Shown here: piece by piece, positions 1-20,178 of the stretch
How the letters are laid out: the number at the start of each line of letters is the position of its first letter
Position numbering within the stretch: position 1 is the first letter of the stretch
Source of the DNA: Agarilytica sp.
GTDB taxonomy: Bacteria > Pseudomonadota > Gammaproteobacteria > Pseudomonadales > Cellvibrionaceae
Assembly: GCA_033852175.1 (NCBI GenBank)
Contig: JAWSUY010000001.1
Coordinates: 463,408-527,407, forward strand
Direction of reading: 5' to 3'
Length of the DNA: 64,000 nt
Position numbers and translations under genes: made by a program
The notes under the pieces: generated by a model
Told to the model about the DNA's origin: nothing
Databases searched by the model: none
Seen by the model: only the letters and a program-made list of their open reading frames with translations

Positions 1-1409
1 GTGTCCTTATAAGGGATAGCCGTCAACAACGCTTCAACGGGAAACGTATCGCCATTTTTACGTATATGCATCCATTCAAAACGGTTGCTGCCTTTCTTAA
101 ACGCCGCCTGTATGGCTTTGTTGGCCTTTTCCCGAGACAACTGACCATCCGGCTGTCGACGGGGCGAAAAATTCGATGGATGCGCCAAACACAACTCCTC
201 TTTAGAGCCATACCCCAACATATCCAATGCGGCTTGATTACAATCCACAAATGAATTTCCTTCGATTAATAAAATAGCATCCGCCGATTTATCAAACAGC
301 GTTTTATATCGGCGCTTACTCTCACCTAAACTTTCATCCCGCTCTTGCACCATCATCTCTAATTGCGCCTTGCTTTCGACCAAGCTTGCTTCAACAGCAC
401 GACGCTCTTTAATCTCCCCCTCTAAACGACCCAAAATATCACCCAAGTATCGACGTAAGATGCCACTGTAAAGCAAATAGAAAACACAGATAATGATGCC
501 CAAAACACACACAAAAAGGCCGAACTCCAAAACAACCCTTTTCTGCTGCCGAACCAATTCCGTTTCGTCGACGGCGTAAGCTAAACGCCCCACCAACTCT
601 CCTGAAAAATCCACGACAGGAACCTGCGAAACGAACAAACTTTTGTCCCGCTGGCGGACAAGTCGAGAACCTCGAAAAGTATAATCTTCAATAAATTTTC
701 GCAACTCAGGCAACACGGGTTTCATACTGCTGTAAACAATAAAAGGGCCGCCTTCGTTTACCTTATCCCGTTGAATCAAATTTGATTCAACGGAAAGTAC
801 AAGTCCGATATTGTTATTGTGCGCCAAGCGCTCAAGAATATGATCGATAGATTCGCCCACTTCAATGTAGCCAATAACCTCACCATTGACCCGCCATGGA
901 TACACCACCCTTAACATCACATCGCCATAAGAAGTAACCTCTATACCTGCCACGGTATCTTTGCTATTCAAAGCTTCTAGAAATGTTTTACGCCGAATCA
1001 AATCGCCATACTGACTGGGCTGATGCATACGCAAAATAACCCGACCTTCAACATCGGTAAAATAGAATAGTGTCGCATTGTGGTGCTCATTCAGCTCGGA
1101 AAACACCTCCCGCACCTGTTCTTGCAGAGCCTCACGATCACCCGCAAGAAAAGCCGGCGCCAGATCAATATTATGTTCAAAGGAATAAACTAAACCCTCT
1201 AAATACTTCGCTTCCACAGACAGCGCATTGATGAAGTTTTTGCTCACCCGAGCATCGTAAGATTGCCCCAGAGTCGCCATATCCTCCTCTTGCTGCCGAT
1301 CCATCGCCCAAACAATCGCCCAAACAATCGCCACCAGAATAATCCCAATTGAGAGTACAAAAGGCATTACCAGATATGTGCGAACGTTCTTTAAAGGCGC
1401 ACTATTCAT
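1..1409 (-). CDS. Sensor-domain signalling protein (periplasmic Cache-like region, TM, coiled coil, PAS); C-terminal output domain lies beyond window start (partial)
   Basis: Minus-strand ORF starting ATG at 1409 (MNSAPLKNVRTYLVMPFVLSIGIIL...) and open to position 1. N-terminal TM, ~270-aa extracytoplasmic region, second TM (LEFGLFVCVLGIIICVFYLL), then a PAS-like segment (YKTLFDKSADAILLIEGNSFVDCNQAALDMLGY). Not in the ORF track because it lacks an in-window stop. Confidence 0.6.
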   Translation of the reverse strand, partial: MNSAPLKNVRTYLVMPFVLSIGIILVAIVWAIVWAMDRQQEEDMATLGQSYDARVSKNFINALSVEAKYLEGLVYSFEHNIDLAPAFLAGDREALQEQVREVFSELNEHHNATLFYFTDVEGRVILRMHQPSQYGDLIRRKTFLEALNSKDTVAGIEVTSYGDVMLRVVYPWRVNGEVIGYIEVGESIDHILERLAHNNNIGLVLSVESNLIQRDKVNEGGPFIVYSSMKPVLPELRKFIEDYTFRGSRLVRQRDKSLFVSQVPVVDFSGELVGRLAYAVDETELVRQQKRVVLEFGLFVCVLGIIICVFYLLYSGILRRYLGDILGRLEGEIKERRAVEASLVESKAQLEMMVQERDESLGESKRRYKTLFDKSADAILLIEGNSFVDCNQAALDMLGYGSKEELCLAHPSNFSPRRQPDGQLSREKANKAIQAAFKKGSNRFEWMHIRKNGDTFPVEALLTAIPYKD

Positions 1410-1692
1410 AACCAACCTCAAATCAAAAGCGGTATCTTTCTACTCTCACGGTGCGCCCAATAATCGCAAAAAATTCGGCAGGCACACGCGAATGCCCCGG
1501 AGCATAGCGAGCCTGTTTAAGTATAGTTGTATATGAGTAAATTCTGACCGAAAATTGGCTTTGAACACCCGCCAGACCGCCTAGACAGTTGAATGTTGTG
1601 CCTGTATCATGGCCGCCTTCTCAGCTATGAGACAGATGTATTGGGTAAGTAAACCCCTTACAGATGCATGCTTAGCGAGTAAACCAGCCTAC

Positions 1693-1769
1693 GCACCCGT
1701 AGCTCAGCTGGATAGAGTAGGTGGCTTCGAACCACTTGGTCGGGGGTTCGAATCCCTCCGGGTGCGCCA
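1693..1769 (+). tRNA. tRNA-Arg, anticodon TCG (UCG)
   Basis: 77-nt cloverleaf: acceptor GCACCCG/CGGGTGC, D-arm GCTC-AGCTGGATA-GAGT, anticodon stem GGTGG/CCACT with loop CTTCGAA, T-arm GGGGG-TTCGAAT-CCCTC, discriminator G, encoded CCA. Near-identical to E. coli tRNA-Arg(ACG) apart from the anticodon. Confidence 0.85.
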
Positions 1770-1779
1770 ATACCGAAAA

Positions 1780-1805
1780 CCTCGCCGAACGGCGGGGTTT
1801 TTTTA
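1780..1805 (+). terminator. Rho-independent terminator of the tRNA gene
   Basis: CCTCGCCG-AA-CGGCGGGG hairpin followed by TTTTTTT. Confidence 0.6.
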
Positions 1806-1956
1806 TGCGTGGCGCGCCAGACTTCATTCTATATTTTCGCCATTTCACGACATGTACCCAAGCCAACAAACTGCTACCATCTAGCCCTGAAGGCTAATAA
1901 GTTCGAACACATCCATAACATCAGCACCTTCGGCAAACTCAAGGAATTAGACAACC

Positions 1957-2292
1957 ATGTACAGTTTCAAAGTGAGGCCCGGTTACAATTCATCCGCAAT
2001 GCTCATCGACTTTTCTTTAGATGAGGCCGATGACGTTTTTTTCGGTACATTATATGGAGCGCTTCAAGGGATAAATCCGTCGAAAGTTGATTTGAAAGAG
2101 CTGTGGGTAGAAGAGAATGTCACACTTCAATGCAACAGTGATTTGGGCGAATTTGAAATAGTCAGCGACATATATGACTTGGTTTTTATAACAGCAAATG
2201 ACAACCAAAACATCATTCAGAAAATCGAAGAATTGCTCTCCAACCATCACGCGTTTACAAAGCAAAAATATGACGCGAGAGTGTATAACTGA
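1957..2292 (+). CDS. Hypothetical protein (111 aa), possibly the first cassette-like ORF
   Basis: ORF with no recognisable motifs; followed by a weak attC-like imperfect palindrome (2297-2441). Confidence 0.35.
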   Translation: MYSFKVRPGYNSSAMLIDFSLDEADDVFFGTLYGALQGINPSKVDLKELWVEENVTLQCNSDLGEFEIVSDIYDLVFITANDNQNIIQKIEELLSNHHAFTKQKYDARVYN

Positions 2293-2296
2293 GGGG

Positions 2297-2441
2297 ATAT
2301 AACTAAGAGTAAAGCTCTATCTATTACTGACTTTATTTTACCTGGCCAATACAGCGAACAAAGATCACCGCTATAAAGAACATAAAGAAAATACTACCTG
2401 AATACTGAACGAGCTGAACGACATCCATATTCGTTAGTTGA
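2297..2441. repeat. Candidate attC-like site (weak)
   Basis: 5' arm ATAACTAAG and 3' arm CGTTAGTTGAC are partially complementary (AACTAAG versus reverse complement AACTAACG). Confidence 0.3.
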
Positions 2442-2444
2442 CAA

Positions 2445-3067
2445 TGCAAGTGAAAATCGAATTGAAAATAATGTAAAGAAACAAGCTGTCATACCTCTGG
2501 TACCAAAAGTTGTATTCTCACGCTGAGACCTATGCAACAAAAAAAGGAAGCGAACAACACTGCAAACTTACGGTCCGCTCCCGGTCGCGGCCCCCTTTCA
2601 TGTTTGCTATTTTTATAGCTGTATTTTCTTATATTGCTTCTGGGCTATTTAGTCGAGAGCCTGAAATAAACCAATAGGGACCGCTGTGAGCTTAAAGGGG
2701 AAGTCCAAGTAAATGGCCTTGTGACTTCAAATCGTATACTTAACCCTTTCTAAGCTGCTCTCGCCAACAAGATTCACGTGCGGTCCTTCAGAAGAGCAAA
2801 CAAACGCGATCAAAAAACGAACTGGCCCGGCGCGTTATCCTGAGGGTTTGGCACAAATACGTAATCTATTGTTTAAAATCATAGAGTTAGGCCGCTCTCC
2901 ATATCTGGCGATAAGAGGCGCTAGGGCGGCATTTCCCAGACTGGGAATTTGCTTAAATGGTGTAAAGTCAGTTACTGTGGGGGTTACAGGGCGATGCTGT
3001 TTTTGAATTTAAAAAATAGCCGCGCCAGGGAAATCGCGCACTAGGGCGCGATATACAACTGTTAGCC
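2445..3067. other. ORF-less stretch with orphan integron core sites (GTTAGGC at 2886-2892, GTTAGCC at 3061-3067); degenerate/empty cassettes or attI remnant
   Basis: About 620 bp without an ORF over 30 aa on either strand. It contains a canonical R' core GTTAGGC and a second GTTAGCC 18 nt before the GTG start of the 3079 ORF. Confidence 0.3.
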
Positions 3068-3078
3068 GGGAGAATATA

Positions 3079-3516
3079 GTGAACGAAAAAAATGATTCAT
3101 TTCTTGATATAACCGAAGAGAAAACTTCTAAGTTTTGGAAGATTGTGGGGCTTGTTGTTATAGGGTTAATTATTTTATCAAGAATGGACGTATTCGACTC
3201 TGAGTTGAAAAAAGGGTTTGACTATACGATATCCGCTGAGCGTTTGAATGTTAGTTCTTCCGAAGACCTAGTTGCAATATTAAGTGAGTACGCAATAGAT
3301 AGGGAAGTCTTATCAAGCGAGCTAGGAAAAATAGATGTTTCAATGGAAGAGTTTGAAAATAATGTATCAATAGAAATGTTGGCTGATTCAGATCAAAATG
3401 GGTTTAAGGGGCTTTATGTAGAGCTTAGATCGAGCTACGACCCAAATATGATGAAGTCCGTATATGACTTTATTCTCTCAGATATTGAAGTTTTCGTATT
3501 GTCTAAGTCTAGCTAA
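3079..3516 (+). CDS. Hypothetical cassette protein with N-terminal TM helix
   Basis: GTG start 12 nt after GTTAGCC; hydrophobic segment WKIVGLVVIGLIILS; stop TAA embedded in AGCTAAC (attC R''). Confidence 0.5.
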   Translation: MNEKNDSFLDITEEKTSKFWKIVGLVVIGLIILSRMDVFDSELKKGFDYTISAERLNVSSSEDLVAILSEYAIDREVLSSELGKIDVSMEEFENNVSIEMLADSDQNGFKGLYVELRSSYDPNMMKSVYDFILSDIEVFVLSKSS

Positions 3517-3613
3517 CAAAGCTATTTTGCCTCGTTCGCTTTGCTCACTGGACAAATTTTCCGTGGCTGCGCCACTAAAAGAAAAAATTTGCCGCAAATA
3601 AGCGGCGTTAGAA
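3511..3613. repeat. attC site (cassette recombination site)
   Basis: 5' AGCTAACAAAGCTATTTTGCC pairs imperfectly with 3' GGCAAATAAGCGGCGTTAGAA, with bulged bases; internal GTGGCTGCGCCAC hairpin; R' GTTAGAA at 3607-3613, 20 nt before ATG 3634. Confidence 0.55.
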
Positions 3614-3633
3614 TTTAAACTAAAGGAGTAACG

Positions 3634-4104
3634 ATGGATCAGTTTAAAACTCTAGAAAACCTAAGAGATTACATAAAAGAAATAAAAGGTTTTTATTCTC
3701 GACCAACAACGAGAGGAGAGCATTCTACTCTGTACCTTGATCAAAACGACGGAGAGACAATACACGGAATTAGACGGCGAGACTATCTGTTTTCACCTTG
3801 CGGAAAGTTCGTTTTGCCAAGCGAAAATATGGGACTGTCATTTTCCGCTCATTGGCAACACCTTAAAAACATCTATCGCCTAAAATCGTCAAGAAATGGG
3901 GGAAAGCCTGTTGATGTTTGCTGGGCTCTAGAAGATGCAAATTTGCCTCAGGGGTTAAAATTTGTTGTAGATAAGGCTGACAAAAAAAATAGGCATTTCT
4001 TTCTAGCGGTTACCGAAAAAATGCATGTATCTCAGTTGGTTAGCAAACTTAAGTGGGTTGCTGATAGAATGGCTGTAATAAAGGATGCGACTAAAGCCTT
4101 ATGA
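3634..4104 (+). CDS. Hypothetical protein (156 aa, basic); first gene of a two-gene cassette
   Basis: RBS AAGGAG 8 nt upstream; overlaps next ORF by ATGA; no recognised domain. Confidence 0.5.
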   Translation: MDQFKTLENLRDYIKEIKGFYSRPTTRGEHSTLYLDQNDGETIHGIRRRDYLFSPCGKFVLPSENMGLSFSAHWQHLKNIYRLKSSRNGGKPVDVCWALEDANLPQGLKFVVDKADKKNRHFFLAVTEKMHVSQLVSKLKWVADRMAVIKDATKAL

Positions 4105-4391
4105 TTAAATTTAGACAAAAAGAAGAAAAAGATATCTCTCTTTTCTATGCCAGAAAACTTGGCAATGAGGTGGCCGCGTCAATCATTGAGAGTGGTGAGG
4201 TAGCTAATTCAAGCGAGGCTGTTACTTTGGCCCGATTTTACTGGTCTATGGTGGCAGAAACCGTCAAGGAGAAAAATGCCGGTATAGATCATGGTTTCGG
4301 AGATATGGATATGTGGCTCGAATATATTTGTAATGCATTTTTCTTCTATTTATCAAATAATGGGTATGAAGAAGAATGGGAATCCCAATAA
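4101..4391 (+). CDS. Hypothetical acidic protein (96 aa); second gene of the two-gene cassette
   Basis: Start overlaps stop of upstream ORF (ATGA); acidic C-terminus (YEEEWESQ); followed by attC-like repeat. Confidence 0.45.
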   Translation: MIKFRQKEEKDISLFYARKLGNEVAASIIESGEVANSSEAVTLARFYWSMVAETVKEKNAGIDHGFGDMDMWLEYICNAFFFYLSNNGYEEEWESQ

Positions 4392-4466
4392 TTCTGACCA
4401 TGCCATCATTGTTCGCCCTTCGGGCTGGACCGCTCTTCGTTCGGCCCAACATGGCGGGCGTTAGCA
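4392..4466. repeat. attC-like site
   Basis: Ends ...CATGGCGGGCGTTAGCA with R' GTTAGCA at 4460-4466, followed by ACAAGGAG RBS and TTG/ATG start; internal GCCCTTCGGGC hairpin. Confidence 0.45.
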
Positions 4467-4484
4467 CAACAAGGAGAATGAACT

Positions 4485-5120
4485 TTGAACCAGGCAGCTT
4501 CAAGATATCTATATTTTTCAGGATTACTTATTCCTTTCTGGCTTGCTATAGGTGTAATTATTGCTGGGAATCTTTATCCAGGTTACAGCCACCTTAATTA
4601 TGCAATGAGTCAGCTCGGGGCCGTCGGGTCACCAACACAGTTCATATCACCTGCTATCAATAATTATCCGCTTGGGATACTCTTCATTGTATTTGGTGTA
4701 TCCGTATATCGATCATTTTCGGATGCCAAGCTTGCAAAATTAACGGGCATATTGCTAGTGTTTCACGGAATAGGAAGTATTAGTGCGGGCTACTTTCCGT
4801 GTGACGCTGGGTGCAACCCGGAAGTACCATCTCTTAGTCAAAATCTTCACAACTTATCCGGTTTGGTAATGGCGCTTACCCTTTTAACCGCGAGCGCTCT
4901 CTGGGTGTACTTGTCAATTAACTTGGTGAATTTGAAATGGTTTTCCATGTTTTCCTTAATCTGCACTTTAGTTGCGCTAGTGGTAATTCCTTCTATGGCT
5001 TCAGCAATGGACGGTGGCGGAGGGTTTGGTCTATATCAACGCATTAATTATGGAGCTTCTGTAATTTGGGTAGCTACTTTAGCGGTGGTTCTTTATCATT
5101 ACGCTAGTAAAAAGTGCTAA
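4485..5120 (+). CDS. Polytopic membrane protein (about 6 TM), hypothetical
   Basis: Several hydrophobic helices (LLIPFWLAIGVIIAG, GILFIVFGVSVY, LVMALTLLTASALWVYL, LICTLVALVVIPSM...); stop TAA inside GTGCTAAC. Confidence 0.55.
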   Translation: MNQAASRYLYFSGLLIPFWLAIGVIIAGNLYPGYSHLNYAMSQLGAVGSPTQFISPAINNYPLGILFIVFGVSVYRSFSDAKLAKLTGILLVFHGIGSISAGYFPCDAGCNPEVPSLSQNLHNLSGLVMALTLLTASALWVYLSINLVNLKWFSMFSLICTLVALVVIPSMASAMDGGGGFGLYQRINYGASVIWVATLAVVLYHYASKKC

Positions 5121-5231
5121 CAAATTTCTCCTGCTGAAACCAAAAGCTACGAGATTTTTGTACTTTTCGTTCCGCTCAAACATAGCACAAAAACCGCTCC
5201 GCTTTCGTTTCAGAAGCGCAGGGCGTTAGCG
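5114..5231. repeat. attC site
   Basis: 5' GCTAAC...CCTGC-TGAAAC pairs with 3' GTTTCAGAAGCGCAGG-GCGTTAGC, with a 4-nt extrahelical bulge; R' GTTAGCG at 5225-5231; then ACAAGGAG RBS and TTG 5248. Confidence 0.55.
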
Positions 5232-5247
5232 TCACAAGGAGTTTAAG

Positions 5248-5736
5248 TTGGAATTTTTTTATAGTAGTTGGATTGGTGGAATACACTCATTTACAGCAGT
5301 CCTAGCTCTCTTGTTTGGAGCTGTAGTTGTTACATCTAAAAAGGGCACGGGAAAGCATAAAAAAATCGGGTACGCCTATGTAGTTGCCATGGTAGTCCTA
5401 AATATTTCTGCGATTCCTCTGAATGGCTTATTTGGAGGTGCTGGTTGGTTTCACCTATTCATACTCATGAGCTTGCCATACATTTTAATTGGGCTGTACT
5501 TTCCCATATTTAGACGGAGTGATCCAAATTGGAAAATTCGACATCTAGAAATGATGTCTTATAGTTATGTAGGTCTTCTTGCAGCTTTTGTTGCCGAGCT
5601 ATTTATTCGAGTTCCGCTATATTCAGGGGTGAACAATCTTAGTATTTATATCATGGGTATTTTTGTCGTGTCAGGAGTTATGGGTGGAATTGGATTCGCT
5701 ATAATACAAAAAACAAAACGTAGTGTTCAGCGCTAA
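5248..5736 (+). CDS. Membrane protein (4-5 TM), hypothetical
   Basis: Hydrophobic segments throughout; stop region CGCTAACAAG resembles R''. Confidence 0.5.
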   Translation: MEFFYSSWIGGIHSFTAVLALLFGAVVVTSKKGTGKHKKIGYAYVVAMVVLNISAIPLNGLFGGAGWFHLFILMSLPYILIGLYFPIFRRSDPNWKIRHLEMMSYSYVGLLAAFVAELFIRVPLYSGVNNLSIYIMGIFVVSGVMGGIGFAIIQKTKRSVQR

Positions 5737-5774
5737 CAAGTACAGTTGCCACGTAGCAAGAGAATCGATTTAGA

Positions 5775-6500
5775 ATGTACACATTTTCTGGTTTTTTTGT
5801 AAAGGGTAAAGTTGTCGAAGTTGAGAAAGACCATTGCATTGTCCGAAGAATTTCAGACCCATTTGTCGGTAGTGGAGTAAATGCACCCGAGCTGGTTTCA
5901 TCCCATTTAAGTGAGAAAGAAATACGGTGTCTGGCCGCAGATGTCGGAATTGATAAAACAGATCACTGGATGTGTATTGTCTATACATGCTGGGCAGGCC
6001 GAGTCGACTTAGTATTTGGCTATGTTAATAAACCATCTGAATCATATGGGCCTGTGTCAGGAGAGGAAGAAGATGGGGAGCAGGTTTTGGCTAATCTATT
6101 TCGAGAATTTGGCTTATCTGAAAAGCACACGGAATCATTTACACCATTTGAACGAGATTTTTGGGGTGAGTACAAGCTTGGCAAGCGGGACAGCTTCAGA
6201 CACGGCTCCTCCGCAAAGCCACCCCTTCCAAAGGCGCTAGCCTTCAAAAATAGTAACCCTATGGAAGGCGAAGAAGTAAGTGTGAATAAAATACCAGGGC
6301 GCATCATTGTCTTGGGTGTAGCATTGTTTATATTTGCATTGCTATTTGGATTTTTGTCTATGATTCCGGAGGTACAGGATTATGAAAAAGCGCTAATGCA
6401 GATCGCCAAATTTTGTTCAATTGGCTCTGGGATTGGATTTGTACTGGGCATTATTACAAATCTTACGGCGAAAAATACACCAGGAGAACGAAGGAAATGA
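5775..6500 (+). CDS. Hypothetical protein with C-terminal TM helices (start uncertain)
   Basis: ORF start sits only 1 nt after a TTTAGAA R'-like core, so the true start may lie downstream; C-terminal hydrophobic region RIIVLGVALFIFALLFGFLSMIP. Confidence 0.4.
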   Translation: MYTFSGFFVKGKVVEVEKDHCIVRRISDPFVGSGVNAPELVSSHLSEKEIRCLAADVGIDKTDHWMCIVYTCWAGRVDLVFGYVNKPSESYGPVSGEEEDGEQVLANLFREFGLSEKHTESFTPFERDFWGEYKLGKRDSFRHGSSAKPPLPKALAFKNSNPMEGEEVSVNKIPGRIIVLGVALFIFALLFGFLSMIPEVQDYEKALMQIAKFCSIGSGIGFVLGIITNLTAKNTPGERRK

Positions 6501-6614
6501 ATTTAAAAATCAAGAGGTCAAGGCAATTGAAGTTGGTGTTTGATATCGTTCAAAAAACTAAAATCGATTACTCTGACCCTTTGATTCGCGGCCTTACAAA
6601 TCGTAGGAGAGAAG

Positions 6615-7058
6615 ATGTCTATTGAGAAAATGAATGGCCTGGAAGTGATGCAGGGAATTGTGAATGGTGACATTCCTCACCCTAAAATGGCAGAAACGAT
6701 CCCAATGAAAGTTCTTTCAGCAAGCGAAGGCCGTGTTATGTTTGAAGTAATTGCAGATGACAGGCATACAAATCCTCTCGGGGGTATTCATGGAGGATTC
6801 GCTGCTACCGTTATGGATTCAGTTACGGGGTGTGCCGTTCATACCATGCTTAGTGCCGGTCAAGGATATGGAACAATAGAGCTCAATGTAAAGATGCTAA
6901 AGCCTGTTCCTAAGGATACAATCTTGAAAGCCGAAGGCTCTGTAATCAGCATGTCAAAATCACTTGGCGTTTCTGAGGGGAGGCTAACTGACGATAATGG
7001 TAAGGTATTGGCATATGCCTCCGCAACCTGCATGTTAATGGGGCCGCGAAATTTATAA
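6615..7058 (+). CDS. PaaI/4HBT-family hotdog-fold thioesterase
   Basis: Motif NPLGGIHGGFAATVMDSVTGCAVHT, typical of PaaI-family thioesterases; 147 aa. Confidence 0.75.
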   Translation: MSIEKMNGLEVMQGIVNGDIPHPKMAETIPMKVLSASEGRVMFEVIADDRHTNPLGGIHGGFAATVMDSVTGCAVHTMLSAGQGYGTIELNVKMLKPVPKDTILKAEGSVISMSKSLGVSEGRLTDDNGKVLAYASATCMLMGPRNL

Positions 7059-7103
7059 AAAGACAGTGCAATTTATCACGTAGTTGATGACGGCGTTAAT
7101 AAC

Positions 7104-7481
7104 ATGAAAGAAATCATGAAATATTTAATTACTATTGCTATCTTGCTTATTATTTTTTCGTGTTCAAATCAAGATACCAAAAAGAATATTAGCAAGAACA
7201 AGAATGACTCACTGCTGGCTGGCGAAATCGTCGATATAGATGAGAAAAAGGTGGTGCTATCTGAAAAAAATGAACAGTACTGTATTGTTGGCTACACCGT
7301 AACGAAAGAGGGCTTTACCAAAGATGTTAAAACGGTAGATTGTCCGAGTGATATTTTTATATCAGCATCTATCAATGCTGCTAAAAAATTCAAATTCAAA
7401 CCAAAAAAAGTTGACGGCGAAGCAGTTGAAGTAAAAGGTGTAACTAATAGGTTTACTTTTACCGTACAAGAAGACAACTAA
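7104..7481 (+). CDS. Lipoprotein with TonB C-terminal-like domain (alternative start 7116)
   Basis: Signal peptide plus lipobox (IFSCSN); C-terminal segment INAAKKFKFKPKKVDGEAVEV resembles the TonB_C fold consensus; R'-like GTTAATA at 7094-7100. Confidence 0.5.
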   Translation: MKEIMKYLITIAILLIIFSCSNQDTKKNISKNKNDSLLAGEIVDIDEKKVVLSEKNEQYCIVGYTVTKEGFTKDVKTVDCPSDIFISASINAAKKFKFKPKKVDGEAVEVKGVTNRFTFTVQEDN

Positions 7482-7570
7482 CCAGTATGTTTTTCGGACA
7501 CTTTTAAGTTGCTTAAAGAAAAACAACTTAAAGACCGCTGTAAATACAGACGCTAAATCCAAGGAACCTC

Positions 7571-8077
7571 ATGAAAGCACATCACTACCTAAGTATTATT
7601 GTAAGACTATTTTCAGTTTTTTTATTTCTATACGCGCTGGGTCAAACTGGTTTAATTGTCGAAGCCGCGTTACACGGGACTATCAAGGGCATTGTTGTTT
7701 CAGCTTGGCTACCTGCTTTTTTAAGTATTCCTTGGTTGGTGGTCTCTGCGATACTCTGGTTTTTTCCTATGTCGATCGCAAAAAAAATAGTGCCTCTAGA
7801 AAGCGACACAACGCCATCAAACTTGTCTCCAATATCAATTTTGGCTGTTCTTCTGACGGCCATGAGCGTGTACTTTTTATACTACGCAGTAGTTGATACG
7901 TTATATTGGATTACGTTCTGGAATATGCTGCAACATTCCAGTAATGGAGGGTATCCCATTGAGCTGAACCCTGAGAACAAGGCAACTATGTACTCTAACG
8001 CTCTGGAACTTTTCTCTGCGTTGGTTATATTGTTCAATTCAAAAAGGATTGCGGCGAGGCTTCATTCTGTTGGATGA
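7571..8077 (+). CDS. Membrane protein (4 TM), hypothetical
   Basis: Hydrophobic helices (IIVRLFSVFLFLYALG, VVSAWLPAFLSIPWLVVSAILWFF, ISILAVLLTAMSVYFLYYAV). Confidence 0.5.
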   Translation: MKAHHYLSIIVRLFSVFLFLYALGQTGLIVEAALHGTIKGIVVSAWLPAFLSIPWLVVSAILWFFPMSIAKKIVPLESDTTPSNLSPISILAVLLTAMSVYFLYYAVVDTLYWITFWNMLQHSSNGGYPIELNPENKATMYSNALELFSALVILFNSKRIAARLHSVG

Positions 8078-8187
8078 TGAGTCTTTGATAATGCGCGAAA
8101 GCACCATACAACAACCTGCATTTGACTCGCTGCCGCTCAGCGTTATGTTCTCCTTAGACTTTACGTTGTTGAGAGGGAAATCTACCT

Positions 8188-8577
8188 TTGATTTGGTCTA
8201 GTAGCTTTAAGCAGTTTTTTATGGGGCTTGGCGTAGCTTGTCTGATGATATCCTTTGGTATCTATTTACTAGACCCAAACGATCGTGGAATTACGCCAAG
8301 CTCCGGGGAATTTTCTCAAAGTGAAGCAGCACTTATAATGGCTGTAATGGGGCTGCTCCTAATTTTTATTTACTACATTGGAGCGTGGGTGCTTAAGTCT
8401 AACTACCGTGAAGAAAATTCGAGAGACAGGTCTGGCGACAACTGGTGTGTCAAAACACTACACGTGCGTCTTAGATCAGCCACTGCGTGGCTTGAAGGTT
8501 TTTCACGGCGCGTGCTTTGCGCTGAACCACAGCCCCTTAACACTGCTTTTAACATGCATATAACACCCAGTCTTTGA
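8188..8577 (+). CDS. Hypothetical protein with 2 N-terminal TM helices (TTG start; ATG 8221 alternative)
   Basis: ORF follows a GTTATGT R'-like core (8141-8147); in-frame stop at 8170 bounds the start. Confidence 0.35.
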   Translation: MIWSSSFKQFFMGLGVACLMISFGIYLLDPNDRGITPSSGEFSQSEAALIMAVMGLLLIFIYYIGAWVLKSNYREENSRDRSGDNWCVKTLHVRLRSATAWLEGFSRRVLCAEPQPLNTAFNMHITPSL

Positions 8578-8818
8578 AAATTTTTGAGTAATGAATTACA
8601 GATCCAACACTTTTACGAAATTTTCTACTTTTAATTCGAAGGTGTACTATTTTGAGACATAATCAAGAAAATAATAGCGATAAATCCGGTATGATTAGCT
8701 TGGATTGTTACAAATACTACTTGCTATAGGGATATTTCTTTGTAGATATCAACGTCTGTAGGCCGCAAAGGAAAACCGCCTGACAATATACTGAGCTAGT
8801 AGTGTTTGAACAAATTTA

Positions 8819-9181
8819 ATGGGAAATTTAAGGAAGATCAGTATGTATTATAATTGCCAGATAAACAGTAGTAAGCCCGTCGACGTAGAATCTGTTATGT
8901 CTTTTTTTGAATCAAAATTTCAGGGTAAATACGAAGTCGAAAAAGCTTTGGCTCCGGGGCGCGACTTTGTACTTAAAAAAAGCGGTCTCATTGGTATATT
9001 CCTATCGGTTAAGCCTAATGATAAAGGCGCGGTGCTAAAGTTCAATGCTTGCCCACCCTCGATGTTATGGCGATTACTTGGCTTTGTTACTATGTTGATA
9101 TGCCTAATGAAAAGCGGGCCTATTGTGGATGACATTAAGGCGCTAGCGGCATATACGAAGGACATGTCTGCGGAGTCCTAA
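8819..9181 (+). CDS. Hypothetical protein (likely start 8843)
   Basis: AGGAAG RBS before ATG 8843 (MYYNCQ...); no recognised domain. Confidence 0.4.
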   Translation: MGNLRKISMYYNCQINSSKPVDVESVMSFFESKFQGKYEVEKALAPGRDFVLKKSGLIGIFLSVKPNDKGAVLKFNACPPSMLWRLLGFVTMLICLMKSGPIVDDIKALAAYTKDMSAES

Positions 9182-9352
9182 GAATTAATTTACCCCGTAT
9201 ATATGATGGTTGCAGGTCTTGCGTTTTCTCCCGAGCATAAAATGATGCCATTACGCCAAGTTTAGGTCGACGAATATGTTGTTGTGTCTTACTGAGGGGG
9301 TCAACCTATTGCAAAGGAAAATTTCAAAGTCCTAGCCACTGCCTTCCACATT

Positions 9353-9379
9353 GCAATCCCTTGATTCTCAAGGGATTGC
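9353..9379. repeat. Perfect inverted repeat, 10-bp arms with 7-nt loop (GCAATCCCTT-GATTCTC-AAGGGATTGC)
   Basis: Read directly in the sequence; overlaps the annotated TTG of the 9361 ORF. Confidence 0.6.
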
Positions 9380-9870
9380 TCTCGGATGAAAACCACTTGA
9401 TCAAAATAATTAGCGTATTAATTCTCTCCACGCTCTTGGTGGGCTGCCCAAATACAGACGCCAGGGTCAAGAACCCTACACCGAAAGATATTGAAGGTGT
9501 TTGGGAGGCTTTATATGACAATAGTACAATTCCATACCTGTTATTGCGGATGGACGACAAAGGAATAGGAAAGGTGATTGGCGCAGGCGACGAAGGTGCC
9601 GGAAAGATATTTGACTTACACTCGTTTGAGACTCTTCAGAAGTCCTTCTTCATTATCGCTGAGCTAGCTACTGACGAAGAGGACGCTGATGATGAGGTAA
9701 TGAAATTCGAGGGTACACTATCCGATGGGTTGCTATGCTTTGCATCAATAAACCCAGACGAAGAAGCAGAAACGCCGGATGCGGAACTTAATATCTGTTT
9801 TGCCCGATTTAAAAAACTGGCAGAATACAGGAAGTCGGCACTGGCGATAGGGGATGAGCTATTGCTCTAA
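9361..9870 (+). CDS. Lipoprotein, hypothetical (probable start TTG 9397)
   Basis: Signal peptide with lipobox LLVGC (from TTG 9397: MIKIISVLILSTLLVGC); acidic C-terminal half. Confidence 0.45.
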   Translation: MILKGLLSDENHLIKIISVLILSTLLVGCPNTDARVKNPTPKDIEGVWEALYDNSTIPYLLLRMDDKGIGKVIGAGDEGAGKIFDLHSFETLQKSFFIIAELATDEEDADDEVMKFEGTLSDGLLCFASINPDEEAETPDAELNICFARFKKLAEYRKSALAIGDELLL

Positions 9871-9901
9871 ATTTTCAATCAAGCGCAGCAATCATTGAAA
9901 A

Positions 9902-10489
9902 ATGGAATATACGATGAACGACGATATTATTGATTACCCTGCAGCATTTCATGACATCTCCACAGAAACTAAGACTATGGATTTCCATCAAGTTTCGGAT
10001 GGAAAGCTAGGCTCGCTGCTGTCGACGCTTTGCGCGAGCAAACAAAAAGGGACTTTCCTAGAGTTGGGAACTGGGAGTGGGCTATCAACATCTTGGATGT
10101 TGTCAGGGATGTGCCAGTCATCATCTCTTGTAACCGTGGATGACGACGTGTCACTTGTGGCTATTGCCAAGAATTTTCTGGGGCATGACAAGCGAGTGCG
10201 ATTTGTTGTTGATCAGGGCGAAGCGCTTATTGATACACTGGAGCCTGAGTCATTTGATCTAATATTCGCCGACACATGGCCCGGAAAGTACTTTCATCTA
10301 GAAGAAACTTTAGATCTACTCAAAACTGGGGGAATGTACATTATCGATGATATGCTACCCCAAGAAAACTGGCCGGAAGGGCATGAAAATAAAGCCGCTA
10401 CGTTAGTGAGTGCTCTATCGCGGAAAGAGAACTTTACGATGACCAAATTGAATTGGTCTACCGGCATTGTTATTTGCACGAAAAAATAA
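9902..10489 (+). CDS. Class I SAM-dependent O-methyltransferase (family 3, caffeoyl-CoA OMT-like)
   Basis: Motif I LELGTGSGLSTSWM, acidic loop VTVDDD and post-I DLIFADTW, typical of O-MTase family 3. Confidence 0.7.
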   Translation: MEYTMNDDIIDYPAAFHDISTETKTMDFHQVSDGKLGSLLSTLCASKQKGTFLELGTGSGLSTSWMLSGMCQSSSLVTVDDDVSLVAIAKNFLGHDKRVRFVVDQGEALIDTLEPESFDLIFADTWPGKYFHLEETLDLLKTGGMYIIDDMLPQENWPEGHENKAATLVSALSRKENFTMTKLNWSTGIVICTKK

Positions 10490-10577
10490 TGTGTATTTGA
10501 TGAAGATGAATGAATCAGATCGCGCTTTCGGTAAAATCATTACCGATTCTAGCGTGATGCATTTTTAGTTTTGGAGG

Positions 10578-10997
10578 TTGTACAACGTGGAAAGAAAAGC
10601 TAGATGTTCATGTGGCCAGTTACGCATTACCGTGAAGGGCGATCCACAAGTAGTCGTCGTATGTCATTGCACTAGATGCCAAATACGAACGGGGTCGGTG
10701 TTTGGCGTTTCTTCGTATTTTGGAGATGACACTGTAGTTTCGATTGAAGGTAACTCTAAGACGCTTGAACGTACGAATGATGCCGGCCGAAAATCGAAAC
10801 GAGATTTTTGCCCTGATTGCGGCACTACTGTTTTTTGGAAGACGTATTCGTTTCCAGAAAGTACGGGTATTGCTGTCGGTTGTTTTGCAGATCCTACGTT
10901 TCCGGCGCCGAAAGCTTCGGTGTGGAATTCATCAAAGCATGATTGGGTTAATTTACCTGAAGATATGCCGTGCTCTGATACGCAAGAATTTGGTTAG
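10578..10997 (+). CDS. GFA (glutathione-dependent formaldehyde-activating / CENP-V-like) family protein; likely GTG start 10587
   Basis: Cysteine pattern CSCGQ...CHCTRCQ...CPDCG characteristic of the GFA family; GGAGG RBS 9 nt upstream of GTG 10587. Confidence 0.7.
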   Translation: MYNVERKARCSCGQLRITVKGDPQVVVVCHCTRCQIRTGSVFGVSSYFGDDTVVSIEGNSKTLERTNDAGRKSKRDFCPDCGTTVFWKTYSFPESTGIAVGCFADPTFPAPKASVWNSSKHDWVNLPEDMPCSDTQEFG

Positions 10998-11062
10998 TTA
11001 CATTCTCGGCTTGGTAAGGGCGTTCACCCTCTTAAAGATGGTTATTACAACAAGGAAAAATT

Positions 11063-11518
11063 ATGGCCAGACAAAATGATAGCGTTGTTTGGATTCTATT
11101 CGCTTATTTATTTAGCTTCTCGTCTTTAGCCGCAGCATATTTTGTTGCGAATGAGATGATCGACCCTAGCAACCTCAATGCGGGCCTTGGCGATAATAAA
11201 CTTGAGCGAATTACTGAGTCAGTAAGGAAGTATAGAGCGGTCATAACAATCGGCACTATTTTCACTGTCCTTTCTTGGTTTGTCATCGCCATTCAGACAT
11301 TTCGTCTAGCCGCGCACGGAAAAGTGTACTTTATTTCCTCTTATATTTGGGGCGGTATTTATGTCTTACTGTCACCGAGCATAATCATTTTCGTTGGTCC
11401 AGTCTTAATCATGATAAGTTTAAACCGCCAGAAGATTTTACACCCTGAACAGTTTGAAGAGCCGGATATATCACCGGCTGATCGAGTCAAAGCATCAAGC
11501 AGTGAAAATAGTGTATGA
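11063..11518 (+). CDS. Membrane protein (3-4 TM), hypothetical
   Basis: Hydrophobic helices (VVWILFAYLFSFSSLAAAYFV, AVITIGTIFTVLSWFVIAI, GGIYVLLSPSIIIFVGPVLIMI). Confidence 0.45.
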   Translation: MARQNDSVVWILFAYLFSFSSLAAAYFVANEMIDPSNLNAGLGDNKLERITESVRKYRAVITIGTIFTVLSWFVIAIQTFRLAAHGKVYFISSYIWGGIYVLLSPSIIIFVGPVLIMISLNRQKILHPEQFEEPDISPADRVKASSSENSV

Positions 11519-11593
11519 ATATATCGGCTCTAGTAATCCATCGAATTAAAACTTAATCTGAACAAATAATTAATTCCACTCAAAGAGAATCAT

Positions 11594-11866
11594 ATGAATA
11601 TAAAAACAATAGCCATCCCAGCCATTAGTACGTTGATGCTCTCTCTTTCTTGTGTCGTATTTTCACACGAGCATGAACACGAAAAGTCCGAGAAACCAGA
11701 CGGAAAACAGAATTACACGATGTGTGCAGCCATTAGGATGAAAGAAGTCAACCTTGGTCATATTATTAAGAACCCAGACAAGTATTCAACTCACATCCCT
11801 GAAGGTTGGTCGGTAGTAAGTGGGACTGGGGGAGACGGTCACCCTAAGTTATTGATTTGTCGATAA
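11594..11866 (+). CDS. Small secreted protein, hypothetical
   Basis: N-terminal signal peptide (MNIKTIAIPAISTLMLSLSCVVFS); His/Glu-rich stretch. Confidence 0.4.
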   Translation: MNIKTIAIPAISTLMLSLSCVVFSHEHEHEKSEKPDGKQNYTMCAAIRMKEVNLGHIIKNPDKYSTHIPEGWSVVSGTGGDGHPKLLICR

Positions 11867-12136
11867 GACTCATGCCTATACCCAACATTTAGTCTCTGGC
11901 GGTGAAAGTGGGCGTAATTTGTCCACTACATAGCTTCCTTTTTTGTTCATTCCATCGATTAGTCCACAGACTGCCCAGCGCCTACGCTTAGTATTGAACA
12001 ACCTGCTTATGCCAGATACCCAATAGTAACGTGGCTTTCTTTTTGCGCTTGTGCTTTTGATGTAGTATCGGCGCTTCAGTTTGAGTCCTTTCTGTTTTTA
12101 CGAAGCAAATCTATTTTTGAATATGAGTTCAGTTGC

Positions 12137-13243
12137 ATGAATGTCGACGGTAACCCTTTTAGAACTATTTCCCTGGCCGAAGATAATTGGCGAGTGGTGA
12201 TTATTGATCAAACACTGCTTCCACATAAATTTGAGACCATAGCCCTTGAATCCCTTGAGGATACGGCGCAAGCCATTAACGATATGCAGGTACGCGGCGC
12301 CCCATTAATTGGCGCTACCGCAGCTTACGGTGTGGCACTTGCCATGCGGAACGATCCATCAAATGCGATGCTTTCCCATGCTTACCAAAACCTATTGGAT
12401 ACGCGACCGACTGCCGTGAATCTTCGCTGGGCCTTAGATGAGATGACAAGTACGCTAACGAATCTACCACCGGAAGAACGGCAATCAGCAGCCTATGAAC
12501 GCGCCGCTGCTTTATGCAATGAAGATGTGGAAATCTGTTCAAGCATTGGTGATCACGGGGTTAAGCTAATCGAAACCCTTTGGGAGCAGAAGGGGAAGAG
12601 CGGGGTTGTTAATGTACTCACTCATTGCAACGCCGGCTGGCTGGCCACGGTTGATTGGGGTACGGCCTTAGCGCCCATTTATAAAGCTCACAATAAGGGT
12701 ATACCCATTCATGTATGGGTAGATGAAACCCGGCCTCGCAACCAGGGCTTTAATCTCACAGCTTGGGAGCTGGGCAAACACGGTGTGCCCCATACGATTA
12801 TTGTGGATAACGTTGGCGGTCATTTGATGCAACACGGTCAGGTGGACATGTGTATCGTGGGTACAGATCGAACGACACGCACGGGGGATGTGTGTAATAA
12901 AATTGGGACATATTTAAAGGCATTGGCGGCTAAGGATAGTCACATTCCCTTTTATGTCGCGCTTCCCAGCCCCACTATTGATTGGACGACGCGAGATGGA
13001 TTAAGTGAAATACCCATTGAACAACGGAGCGGCTCTGAAGTAACGCATATTTCCGGCCGTGCTGACGACGGCAGTGTTCAAACGATTTGTATTTCCCCTG
13101 AAGGCAGTGTCGCTGCCAACTATGGTTTTGATGTGACGCCCGCGAGATTGATCACGGGTTTGATCACAGAACGCGGTGTCACTGATGCGACAGAGGAGGG
13201 GCTTACGAAACTGTTCCCAGATGAGGCTGGCATTACAAAATGA
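12137..13243 (+). CDS. mtnA: S-methyl-5-thioribose-1-phosphate isomerase
   Basis: Collinear similarity to MtnA/eIF-2B family throughout ([59 protein letters not shown]). Confidence 0.85.
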
Positions 13244-13950
13244 ATGATTTAGAGTTACGTAATAACCTTATTGCTACCGCCATCGCGTTAAACACCAGCG
13301 GTATCAATCAAGGGACTTCTGGCAATGTTTCTGTTCGCACTGAAACTGGTTTTTTAATCACTCCGTCCGGAATGCAATACGCGGAGCTGGAGCCAAGTGA
13401 TGTGGTGTTAATGGATTTTAATGGGGGCTTTGATTCTGACCGAAAGCCTTCTAGTGAATGGCGTTTTCATCTCGAAATTTATCGGCATAGCGACGATGAA
13501 GAGAAAAACAACGGCGAAGGTAAAGATGGGAACAGTGAGTATAAAGTTGGCGCTATCGTCCATACGCATTCCACTTACGCCACGGCCATCGCTTGCTTAA
13601 AACGATGCATTCCCGCGTTTCATTATATGGTCGCTGTGGCAGGAGGTCACGATATCCGCTGCGCGCCTTACGCAACTTTTGGCTCACAAGAACTTTCTGA
13701 TTATGCCATTGAAGCCTTGGTCGATAGAAAAGCCTGCTTACTTGCCCACCATGGCGTTATTGCCACGGGGGCAAACCTTGCCAAGGCTTTTGCTTTGGCC
13801 GGTGAGGTGGAAACCCTCGCGCATCAGTATCTTGAAGCGCTTAAGGTTGGCCAACCCGAAACGCTTTCTCGTGATGAGATGGACAGGGTTGTTGAGAAGT
13901 TCAAAACTTATGGTGCGCAGGCTCAGCAAAAAAGGGGGGCAGGGCAGTAA
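13240..13950 (+). CDS. mtnB: Class II aldolase/adducin-family protein, probable methylthioribulose-1-phosphate dehydratase
   Basis: GNVSVR and [11 protein letters not shown] motifs of class II aldolases; start overlaps mtnA stop (ATGA), giving the methionine-salvage context. Confidence 0.6.
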
Positions 13951-14164
13951 AGTAACATTCTGGCGGCTGAATATTTATTCTCATTTCTGTATCCGTCATT
14001 AGAAGGAACTCCCTCAACAATTCTTCCTTATTAATATCTGAAACCCCGCATTTACTTACCCCGTTATCTAACACTCGTAAAAGTAGCCAGTAGCGTAGGA
14101 GGTTGTTAGAGTAACTCCGCTTTTAGAGCAAAATAATTTAGCGAACACTTAAAGGGTTAAGTAA

Positions 14165-14464
14165 ATGACTGATATGAAGAAAATCTATATCAAACAAGAC
14201 GCGGAGAGCAGCGCACTCACCATCGCGTGTAGACTCATATCTGACGATGACCCTCAAATACAGTTAGTGCCTGGTGAATGGGTAAAAGTGGCCACCTGCC
14301 CCCCCGGCAATCACCAATTGCGAGTCGGCTCTATCCTCGCTTCAGGGAAACAAGCTGTGACTCTTCATTTGAACGGTCTTACACATAATTCAAACGATAA
14401 GATTGAGGAGCTGTTCTTTTCCCCTACCGATGGATCTCTCTATGATCTAGAGATTCAAGAATGA
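14165..14464 (+). CDS. Hypothetical protein (99 aa)
   Basis: ORF with start overlapping the next gene (ATGA); no recognised domain. Confidence 0.4.
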   Translation: MTDMKKIYIKQDAESSALTIACRLISDDDPQIQLVPGEWVKVATCPPGNHQLRVGSILASGKQAVTLHLNGLTHNSNDKIEELFFSPTDGSLYDLEIQE

Positions 14465-15549: not shown

Positions 15550-15613
15550 GGATGTGGATATAATTCTTCCGAGCATATCACTGCTCGGAAGAAATTTATT
15601 ATCTAGTCTAAAT

Positions 15614-16126: not shown

Positions 16127-16449
16127 TTCCCACCTCAATATAGATTTTTGTTTATCGTTCCCATACCGAAATAGGTAGGTTCAACAACGAAAATTAGTGT
16201 TTTGTTTCTATTGCACCACTACCTCAAACCTAGGCACATACAACCGTGTGAACTTAAACGATATGGCACGCGATTGCTAGCATTATCAGCCTAGACCAAT
16301 GGCGATCAATACAGGTTCTAAGACAAGAATCGAACCGAGTATTCGCGCTCGATATTGTGTGGTGCTTTGATTTCATGCGTGGTAATTTTACGCTCGCTAA
16401 TCATTTTTCACATAACCCCCCTCTCAACATATGCCTGCCACGAAATAAT

Positions 16450-16821: not shown

Positions 16822-16869
16822 AATACTGACCGGCCATACTCTCTTTCTCGTTACGACATTGGTATTAAA

Positions 16870-17484: not shown

Positions 17485-17538
17485 CGCGGCCATTGAGTAA
17501 TCGCCCCATTACATTTCTGTAGCGCTACGGAGTTCTCG

Positions 17539-20122: not shown

Positions 20123-20178
20123 AGAATGCTCAATACAGCAATATCGATCATGCTTTATCATTTCAGCCAAATTAAGAT

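Follow-up and report, generated by a model that had tools for sequence, protein, structure and literature searches.

What is the run of short, co-oriented genes that separates a tRNA-Arg gene from mtnA on Agarilytica sp. contig JAWSUY010000001.1, and how much of it consists of integron gene cassettes? We addressed this question for the 64-kb stretch of DNA that surrounds the run (hereafter the window: 64,000 nucleotides, with positions counted from its first letter). [quoted passage not shown] Our analysis narrows this proposal. The tRNA-proximal part of the island, ~3061–5231, is probably a short three-cassette integron array of the CALIN type, with no integrase nearby, inside a hypervariable locus. 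This reading is carried by the anatomy of three consecutive spacers, by their matches to two attC models, by a homology breakpoint that coincides exactly with the crossover point of integron integrases, by the lack of a detectable intI gene in the 64 kb, and by the variability of the locus among relatives.

Three Consecutive Spacers Have the Anatomy of attC Sites

An integron integrase (IntI) is a tyrosine recombinase that binds the folded bottom strand of an attC site, with the crossover placed between G and TT in GTTRRRY. The attC consensus places an R″ box, RYYYAAC, at the 5′ end and an R′ box, GTTRRRY, at the 3′ end; the two are mutually complementary, and L boxes follow them after unpaired spacers of about 5 and 6 nucleotides (nt), with one or more extrahelical bases. 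Three plus-strand spacers in the proximal island are built along these lines: attC1 (3511–3613, 103 nt), attC2 (4392–4466, 75 nt), and attC3 (5115–5231, 117 nt). They lie within 1.7 kb on one strand, and their lengths fall inside the range of attC sites (~55–141 nt). At all three, R″ overlaps or adjoins the stop codon of the preceding open reading frame (ORF), the next start follows R′ after 11–21 nt, and the site is oriented as the ORFs are. Measured between successive GTT cores (3061, 3607, 4460, and 5225), the units so delimited span 546, 853, and 765 bp.

By inspection, attC1 reads CTAAC-AAAGC-TATT(T)TGC … GCAAATA-AGCGGC-GTTAGAA, in the order R″-5 nt-L″ … L′-6 nt-R′, with AAAGC and AGCGGC as spacers and a bulged T. 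Its R boxes, CTAAC and GTTAG, form five of the seven possible pairs, the outer two being mismatched, and the site matches the proven attC of dfrA5 collinearly at the 5′ end, the center, and the 3′ end. attC2, TTCTGAC-CATGC-CAT(C)ATTG … CAACATG-GCGGGC-GTTAGCA, has the canonical 5/6-nt geometry as well, with spacers CATGC and GCGGGC and a bulged C. The R stem of attC3, TGCTAAC … GTTAGCG, is a perfect 7 bp (7/7 pairs), and as single-stranded DNA the site forms a single imperfect hairpin, end to end, closed by its R boxes. The conserved 3′ end GGCGTTAG also agrees with the attC consensus.

The boundary signatures of these sites are enriched in the island. A stop codon lies within CTAAC in 4 of the 15 island ORFs and in 0 of 52 ORFs outside (p = 0.002), and GTTAG occurs at most 40 nt upstream of the start in 4/15 against 1/52 (p = 0.008); both signatures are limited to the proximal half of the island. 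The heptamer GGCGTTA occurs 13 times in the window, four times within 3604–7098, and those four are all intergenic and on the plus strand. The statement that each ORF begins some 20 nt after GTTAG behind a conserved ACAAGGAG therefore survives in part, for the same 4/15 ORFs as far as GTTAG is concerned, with the exact ACAAGGAG at only two. A spaced pattern that we also tried, GTTAG-N7-AAGGAG, had the wrong spacing and matched at chance level. The claim that the first attC sites are highly similar did not hold: pairwise identity among the three is 0.45–0.59, against 0.55 ± 0.02 for shuffled sequences, and this dissimilarity contradicts the argument for a sedentary chromosomal integron that the earlier note had drawn from the supposed likeness.

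Upstream of attC1, the series opens with a lone R′-type core read directly from the sequence, GTTAGCC (3061–3067, plus strand), 11 nt before the GTG start of the ORF at 3079. Neither of our models found a partner R″ for this core, where we presume that cassette 1 has its left junction, formed at an attI, at a secondary site, or at an attC of greater age.

Two Covariance Models Converge on the Same Sites

As substitutes for the IntegronFinder model attC_4 with its E ≤ 1 criterion, we used two covariance models of our own, both class-1-derived. R1 was built from 12 genuine attC sites of class 1 plasmid arrays, with only the R″/R′ and L″/L′ helices paired. On a control set of 80 integrase-anchored loci from metagenomes it found 89 sites in 71 loci, 87 of the 89 on the strand opposite intI, as expected, and R2 was built from those 89 control sites. 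Intact attC sites as a whole score 20–78 bits. Integrase-linked sites score 18–78 bits with R1; with R2, the AT-rich attC of another Agarilytica locus (L098, see below) scores 26.6 bits and the dfrA5 attC 28.3 bits.

When the whole window was searched with R1 on both strands with filters off, the two best matches were attC3 (18.1 bits, E = 0.045) and attC1 (13.6 bits, E = 0.65), both full-length and on the plus strand, and a partial match at 4444–4466, within attC2, reached 9.2 bits (E = 8.6). With R2 applied to the island only, the top three matches were attC2 (10.4 bits), attC1 (7.9 bits), and attC3 (7.4 bits), again full-length and on the plus strand, with E-values of 0.55, 2.2, and 2.9, respectively. 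R1 and R2 thus single out one set of three neighboring spacers, correctly oriented, and both grade them as weak. The earlier note had tied its proposal to attC covariance models scoring the repeats, and by our own models this holds only narrowly (E = 0.045 and 0.65 for R1 in the window, 0.55–2.9 for R2 in the island only).

The noise level of the models can be gauged from a minus-strand match at 44987–45025, which is the best R2 match in the whole window (14.5 bits) and the third best for R1 (12.1 bits). Spanning 39 nt, it matches in the R boxes only (TTTAAC … GGGCGTTAAAT), lacks L boxes, and is almost certainly a false positive. Indeed, across the whole window R2 scores the three sites no better than R-box-only matches elsewhere.

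Several other search methods were tried and set aside. A scan combining the motif AAC…GTT, part-complementary boxes, and folding energy under forced R pairing returned 640 candidates headed by GC-rich coding hairpins and was uninformative. Position weight matrices of the site arms from the 89 integrase-linked sites, with a bonus for L pairing, gave the window sites at most 12, a background-like value, against at least 16 for the training sites; the training was biased to GC-rich L boxes. A blastn-short comparison of candidate sites with known attC hit control tiles equally often, and only the collinearity of attC1 with dfrA5 was informative. An alignment of long AT-rich attC sites (A5) proved to mix two L-box geometries.

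A Cassette Boundary Falls Exactly on the Integrase Crossover Point

The evidence that decides the matter is comparative and concerns cassette 2, the gene pair between attC1 and attC2. The pair is a conserved module of two genes that recurs in many marine Gammaproteobacteria, including Agarilytica, Hahella, Cellvibrio, Microbulbifer, Aliikangiella, and Agaribacterium; in some it is a cassette, in others it stands in an ordinary, attC-free chromosomal context. In metagenome contig L198 the module is present at 91% nucleotide identity behind an unrelated ORF of 717 amino acids (aa). Homology between L198 and the window begins at 3607, the G of the attC1 R′ core GTTAGAA (G|TTAGAA): identity over the adjoining 20 nt rises from 15% on the left side to 95% on the right, and over 200 nt, with gaps allowed, it is 58% on the left (aligner background) and 91% on the right. 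The R′ core of attC1 is thus the exact homology breakpoint, and a breakpoint at G|TT is the exact crossover place of integron integrases. Presumably, an IntI made this and the other junctions.

A second context comes from an unrelated marine genome (GCA_030590405.1, L102), in which the same pair, at 69% aa identity, follows …GGCGGGC|GTTAGGG and precedes a CCCTAAC…GTTAAAG site. The ORF that precedes the pair has an attC, at 9871–9971, whose ends, TGCTAACAAAT…GCGGGCGTTAG, nearly match those of attC3 of the window. R1 and R2 did not flag the attC-type sites of L102, so these class-1-derived models under-score the attC family of L102 and the window, which partly explains the weak window scores. 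We note that L102 holds a second integrase-less array, at 9500–10850, in which a DUF5992-like secreted-protein cassette is followed by the same toxin-like pair, each with an attC-type site.

Another Agarilytica genome, metagenome-assembled genome (MAG) GCA_045430285.1 (L098), has a textbook attC at 14728–14840 (20.5 bits with R1, 26.6 bits with R2) and no integrase within 10 kb of it. There, genes with MC6/MC7 and DUF2326 domains, resembling a conflict system of the ABC-3C type, precede the attC (12797–14840). Judged from domain content, these genes and their attC would be a predicted defense or conflict system traveling as an isolated cassette.

The Locus Is Hypervariable between Conserved Flanks and Has No Integrase

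The interval between tRNA-Arg and mtnA holds 17 ORFs, 17/17 on the plus strand, and its island has a GC content of 0.413, where the remainder of the window has 0.449, so that the co-oriented run and the low GC described earlier are both borne out. The tRNA-Arg(TCG) gene (1693–1769, plus strand; ARAGORN and Rfam) keeps the same position in a relative, L001, and is a conserved neighbor outside the element; upstream of it, a minus-strand PAS-domain sensor gene runs off the window edge. On the other side, mtnA (12137–13243, plus strand; methylthioribose-1-phosphate isomerase; Pfam IF-2B, E = 1e-62) forms the right conserved anchor. Its product is 87% identical to a protein of L001, an Agarilytica sp. 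MAG, with remoter matches in other Proteobacteria, which places the window in an Agarilytica-like member of the Cellvibrionaceae.

The array does not lie directly at the tRNA 3′ flank, as had been thought, because a conserved ORF intervenes, and its nearness to the tRNA gene is incidental. This 111-aa ORF (1957–2292, plus strand) is homologous throughout its length to L001 (81%) and to a third lineage, L195 (89%), with homology ending at 2292 and 2287 in the two comparisons, and just four protein clusters of it exist, every one at the same locus. Its counterpart at the right edge encodes a 90-aa secreted protein (11594–11866, plus strand; L001 75%, L195 87%). Since they are conserved in relatives, both are core flank genes and not cassettes, and the first and last cassettes claimed earlier drop out of the count. 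The variable island extends from near 2293 to ~11570 and holds 15 ORFs.

Within these flanks, little is shared. The distance from tRNA-Arg to mtnA is 1.8 kb in L001 and 10.4 kb in the window; by blastn, window positions 1–2292 and 11571 onward are kept in L001 at 75%–82%, and the island is missing. In L195, whose flanks are 87%–90% identical at the nucleotide level, overlap with the island is limited to the distal part, 10259–11570 (84%–87% identity by blastn, with the methyltransferase gene 5′-truncated in L195), and to a 77-nt non-coding piece (window 2516–2589, L195 8942–9018, 80% identity). The L195 locus has its own filler with gene fragments, including one of a MazG-like pyrophosphohydrolase (L195 8500–8700), and at the equivalent place L001 has an IS3-like orfA fragment on the minus strand (L001 9054–9335). 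Three different contents in three lineages make the locus hypervariable, and the IS3-like and MazG-like fragments are a further sign of a hotspot for gain and decay.

Metagenome contigs of the same species are all collinear with the window and give no direct presence/absence polymorphism. Contigs from independent runs stop at identical window positions: four end at 2955 and one at 2677; within attC2, one begins at 4402 and another finishes at the equivalent of 4428; and one starts at 8854. These shared ends suggest branch points of the assembly graph, arising from repeats or from strain differences in island content. L198 and the same-strain contig L199 both break within attC2, as expected if this site is common to different contexts in the community.

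No integrase was found in the window, as the earlier note had stated: tblastn with IntI1 and 14 divergent IntI proteins, together with an IntI profile hidden Markov model (HMM), over six frames of the 64 kb, gave a best E of ~0.2. The same holds for remnants, since tblastn and the profile HMM returned nothing in the ORF-free leader (2293–3078), and no IntI was detectable in the L001, L098, L102, L195, and L198 sequences. The leader that separates the flank gene from the first cassette (2293–3060, 770 bp, no strand assigned) has no ORF longer than 93 codons, no IntI similarity, and no recognizable attI; 2516–2589 is its sole part kept in L195. Its end, 2918–3067, is strongly structured as single-stranded DNA (z = −4.3 against shuffles), with several hairpins, and stops at the first GTTAGCC core. 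This stretch has no Rfam match and is not scored as attC by R1 or R2; a relic of an attI is one possible identity, a structured element of unrelated nature another. In a collection of plasmids, nothing matched the island.

Downstream of mtnA and mtnB, a run of short, mostly plus-strand genes at 14046–22801 looks cassette-like by eye (glyoxalase, LysE, DUF1801, GST, adenine glycosylase, PhyH, and an AraC/GyrI-like regulator). As a second array it was rejected: it is collinear and conserved in L001 (~81%–82% identity) and belongs to the core genome.

The Three Cassettes Carry Orphan, Toxin-like, and Membrane Protein Genes

Cassette 1 consists of one ORF (3079–3516, plus strand) of 145 aa, whose stop codon lies within AGCTAAC. 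The protein is an ORFan, the sole member of its kind among 5.8 billion protein clusters, with no match in Pfam or PADLOC.

The first gene of cassette 2 (3634–4104, plus strand) encodes a 156-aa candidate toxin with a Tse2-like ADP-ribosyltransferase (ART) fold. Its own match to Pfam PF18648 (E = 0.03, 15.4 bits) is below the cut-off of 26.6, and 26 of the 37 members of its family match PF18648 at E ≤ 0.01 (best 1e-5). The AlphaFold (AF2) model has a pLDDT of 90, and its top Foldseek match in the PDB is Tse2 (5ako_C; probability 0.89, TM 0.47, E = 0.14), followed by other ART folds. The second gene (4101–4391, plus strand) overlaps the first by 4 nt and encodes a 96-aa putative immunity protein with no family match; in L098, L100, L101, L102, and L198 it accompanies the toxin-like gene in every case. 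With the modeled fold and the tight coupling of the genes, a toxin-immunity function of the pair is plausible. Toxin cassettes are known to stabilize integron arrays.

Cassette 3 encodes a 211-aa membrane protein of the DUF998 family (4485–5120, plus strand; Pfam PF06197, E = 6e-28), with its stop codon within TGCTAAC. Such cargo, an ORFan, DUF proteins, and a toxin-like pair, is typical of cassettes. Between tRNA-Arg and mtnA, six ORFs belong to Pfam families and the remainder have no family match; PADLOC found no defense systems among the unannotated ORFs, and exact-protein look-ups for the cassette 1 and toxin proteins returned no record. Promoter and terminator consensus scans matched at chance level only, and Rfam, at gathering and E-value thresholds, reported only the tRNA.

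The Distal Island Holds Relics and Stretches Free of attC

Beyond attC3 the evidence for cassettes thins out. A DUF2306 ORF (5248–5736, plus strand; Pfam) ends in an orphan R″, CGCTAAC (5731–5737), at its stop codon. An orphan R′-like core, GGCGTTAAT (7092–7100, plus strand, with a GGCGTTA match at 7092), lies beyond two further plus-strand ORFs, which both stand between the two orphan boxes: 5775–6500 and 6615–7058, the latter a 4HBT thioesterase by Pfam. The spacers in 5248–7103 are unstructured on folding, and we infer that the region is made up of relics of cassettes whose attC sites are broken. The direct repeat CACGTAG (7 nt; 5752–5758 and 7078–7084) brackets the ORFs 5775–6500 and 6615–7058. 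The idea that the orphan R″ at 5731 and R′ at 7092 are halves of one attC split by an insertion was rejected; the rebuilt site would be ~42 nt long and is not palindromic.

A TonB_C-domain lipoprotein ORF follows (7104–7481, plus strand; Pfam), with its stop within AACTAAC, the start of a degenerate attC relic (7476–7558, plus strand) that reads AACTAAC … GCTAAAT and then CCAAGGAA. This relic has a strong central stem (fold z = −3.1), only four of its seven R-box pairs form, and both R1 and R2 miss it. From 7571 to 10258 there is no significant R1 or R2 match, and the spacers fold like shuffles apart from local hairpins; the stretch holds plus-strand ORFs with no recognizable attC (7571–8077, 8188–8577, 8819–9181, and 9361–9870) and the 5′ part of a methyltransferase ORF. 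It is missing from L195 and L001 and 100% identical in L199.

The part of the island shared with L195, 10259–11570, is by sequence comparison its older distal portion. It includes the 3′ part, from 10259, of the S-adenosylmethionine methyltransferase ORF (9902–10489, plus strand; Pfam), a GFA protein ORF (10578–10997, plus strand; Pfam), and a 151-aa membrane ORF (11063–11518, plus strand). Between the last two lies a doubtful relic, GTTAGTTAC … GTTATTAC-AACAAGGAA (10993–11048, plus strand). Repeat family D2 falls in this distal portion. By folding and by R1 and R2, seven spacers of the island lack attC features: 6501–6614, 8078–8187, 8578–8818, 9182–9386, 9871–9901, 10490–10577, and 11519–11593.

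About three cassettes are therefore demonstrable, with perhaps three or four more relics. Of the 14–16 cassettes first counted, those bounded by the spacers 3511–3613, 4392–4466, and 5115–5231 stand, and the distal two-thirds of the island yields relics or nothing. Likewise, the palindromes said to separate most ORFs are convincing at three spacers; beyond these there are one degenerate site, one doubtful site, and two orphan half-sites, and the rest are unstructured or have no R boxes. The CALIN-like description thus applies to the tRNA-proximal part, which holds the top model matches and the mobile cassette 2.

Discussion

We consider the proximal island to be, in all probability, an integron cassette array. 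Each proximal unit would be a promoter-less ORF or ORF pair followed by its attC, moved by an IntI through the folded bottom strand of that site, as extrapolated from established integron biology. With no local intI, the array would be static in the absence of a trans-acting integrase from another place, and its genes would be expressed only by read-through or from internal promoters. The Tse2-like candidate and its partner in cassette 2 could serve as an addiction module that helps to retain the array. The distal stretch, 5232–11570, most likely represents older DNA, derived from cassettes or acquired in another way, in which the attC sites have decayed to one degenerate site and two orphan half-sites. 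The whole may be the remnant of a resident integron, since the truncated L195 methyltransferase and the long, structured non-coding leader point to an older, shrinking structure.

Several observations weigh against this reading of the proximal island. The scores are weak (R1 18.1, 13.6, and 9.2 bits; R2 10.4, 7.9, and 7.4 bits, where intact AT-rich attC sites reach 26–28 bits with R2), and the three sites would probably miss a genome-wide threshold of the IntegronFinder type, E ≤ 1. In a whole-window search R2 does not rank the three sites best and lists only attC2 (E = 3.8). The sites themselves are imperfect. The R″ of attC2 is mutated (TTCTGAC, with GAC for AAC through one A-to-G change); the L198 orthologue has the canonical TTCTAAC, so the window copy is a decayed version. 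The L-box geometry of attC3 is not canonical, with an 8/2 asymmetric loop and non-standard L-region pairs marked by both models. Minimum-energy prediction folds only attC3 end to end, and the fold z-scores of the three sites are modest (−0.5 to −1.7). The comparative evidence has gaps as well: an alternative context is available for only one cassette, L198 ends inside attC2 so that the right junction is not seen, and remoter homologues of the pair (L100 and L101) stand in ordinary chromosomal contexts with no attC. Finally, two-thirds of the island has no recognizable attC, and a cassette origin there is conjecture.

Some of these points could be read as signs of an ordinary flexible region, in which the CTAAC…GTTAG spacers are chance palindromes, terminators, or a lineage repeat family and the weak scores are noise. 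The R2 E-values are individually non-significant, the loose motif-energy and arm-matrix scans do not separate the sites from background, most island spacers have no attC features, and the IS3 fragment in L001 and the gene fragments in L195 fit a general hotspot of recombination and decay. We nevertheless hold this explanation to be improbable. Two independently trained models pick the same three sites on the right strand, the boundary signatures show statistical enrichment, and the 3′ end GGCGTTAG fits the attC consensus, a feature that a plain hairpin does not need. Furthermore, the L198 breakpoint lies exactly on the G|TT crossover, L102 has the same gene pair between attC-type sites, and terminator-like matches are at chance level. 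The proximity of a tRNA gene, the lower GC, and the absence from a sister species might instead recall a genomic island or prophage remnant integrated in tRNA-Arg by a tyrosine integrase. The window has no IntI- or Xer-like integrase, however, and no direct repeat of the tRNA 3′ end (its 22-mer occurs once even at ≤3 mismatches); the variable segment begins 524 bp past the tRNA, beyond a conserved ORF, and there are no phage, plasmid, or defense-system matches. This origin is effectively refuted, and we give it hardly any weight.

A different history for the same three cassettes deserves more attention, although on balance we doubt it: the locus may never have held a resident integron, and an IntI acting in trans, its gene lying elsewhere in the genome or on a transient element, may have inserted cassettes serially, first into a genomic site that is not an att site (attG) and later into existing attC. 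This would be the route to a CALIN that Loot et al. describe. No intI remnant lies beside the array, as is typical of CALINs, ~95% of which have none nearby (PMC4889954), and cassette insertion by the integrase at non-att sites has been demonstrated experimentally (bioRxiv 10.1101/2022.09.11.507474). The heterogeneous attC sites are expected of cassettes of diverse origin, isolated attC-bearing genes occur elsewhere in the genus (L098), and the array opens with a lone GTTAGCC core that has no recognizable attI or partner R″. On the other hand, the partly structured 770-bp leader (2293–3060) could be what is left of intI-attI, the distal genes common to L195 and the truncated methyltransferase suggest an older, larger structure under deletion, and no empty site is at hand to define an attG.

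Under the resident-array reading or the serial one, the departures of these sites from the class 1 pattern raise the speculative idea, to which we give a small chance, that cassettes of Agarilytica and related marine Cellvibrionaceae use an attC family that departs from the class-1-centered consensus in its arms and L-box geometry. attC3 and L102 9871–9971 would be examples: their R stem spans 7 bp, their spacer is asymmetric (8/2), and their L boxes do not pair canonically. If such a family exists, standard covariance models would under-score or miss its sites, integrase-less arrays in this group, including carriers of toxin or conflict genes such as L098 and L102, would be considerably under-counted, and the cognate integrase would tolerate an unusual site geometry.

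Taken alone, the array is of little weight: it is small, eroded, and without resistance genes, and thousands of integrase-less attC clusters have already been catalogued. It does offer a natural example of array decay, with intact, mutated, half, and vanished attC sites side by side, an example of a toxin-type cassette that passes from one genome to another with the crossover point as its exact boundary, and an example of how model-based attC detection can reach the limit of its sensitivity in AT-rich marine lineages. In annotation, 1957–2292 and 11594–11866 are to be called core genes, and only three cassettes are to be called.

How does the locus compare with known systems? For cassette 2 alone, the relevant comparison is Tse2/Tsi2 of Pseudomonas aeruginosa (PDB 5AKO), in which a small ART-fold protein is likewise followed by a small, tightly coupled partner gene. 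Similarity to PF18648 is at the family level and Tse2 is the best fold match; the similarity is weak (TM 0.47, with the window protein below the Pfam cut-off), there is no type VI secretion system context, and no similarity of the cassette 2 partner to Tsi2 is detectable. Insertions of the SALIN and attG kinds (Loot et al., bioRxiv 10.1101/2022.09.11.507474) resemble the locus in placing cassettes outside an integron platform and in the single attC-bearing genes of relatives (L098), but the window has at least three consecutive cassettes instead of one, and no attG is definable.

Sedentary chromosomal integrons, such as the Vibrio superintegron, share with the window a chromosomal location, ORFan and DUF cargo, a toxin-type cassette that is possibly stabilizing, and promoter-less, co-oriented cassettes. 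They differ in that the window array lacks intI, attI, and Pc and has ~3 recognizable cassettes, and in that sedentary attC sites are typically highly similar, whereas those of the window have an identity of 0.45–0.59, at shuffle level. In comparison with the class 1 dfrA5 attC, attC1 departs in its host, its cargo, the missing integrase platform, and the mismatch of its outer two R-box pairs; it shares the 5′ arm R″-AAAGC-TAT…, the central CGTTCGCTT, the …CGGCGTTAG 3′ end, the spacer geometry, and a length in the same range. CALINs, finally, are a formal class set by the IntegronFinder attC model at E ≤ 1, whereas the window sites were identified by our own models with borderline scores, and the window array sits inside a larger island whose other spacers have lost attC features. 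In other respects it has the profile of a CALIN: several attC-type sites that share one orientation and are spaced by less than 4 kb (three in 1.7 kb), no nearby intI or intI pseudogene, cargo with no assigned function and no resistance genes, and a small array, in keeping with the 83% of CALINs that carry fewer than six attC sites (PMC4889954).

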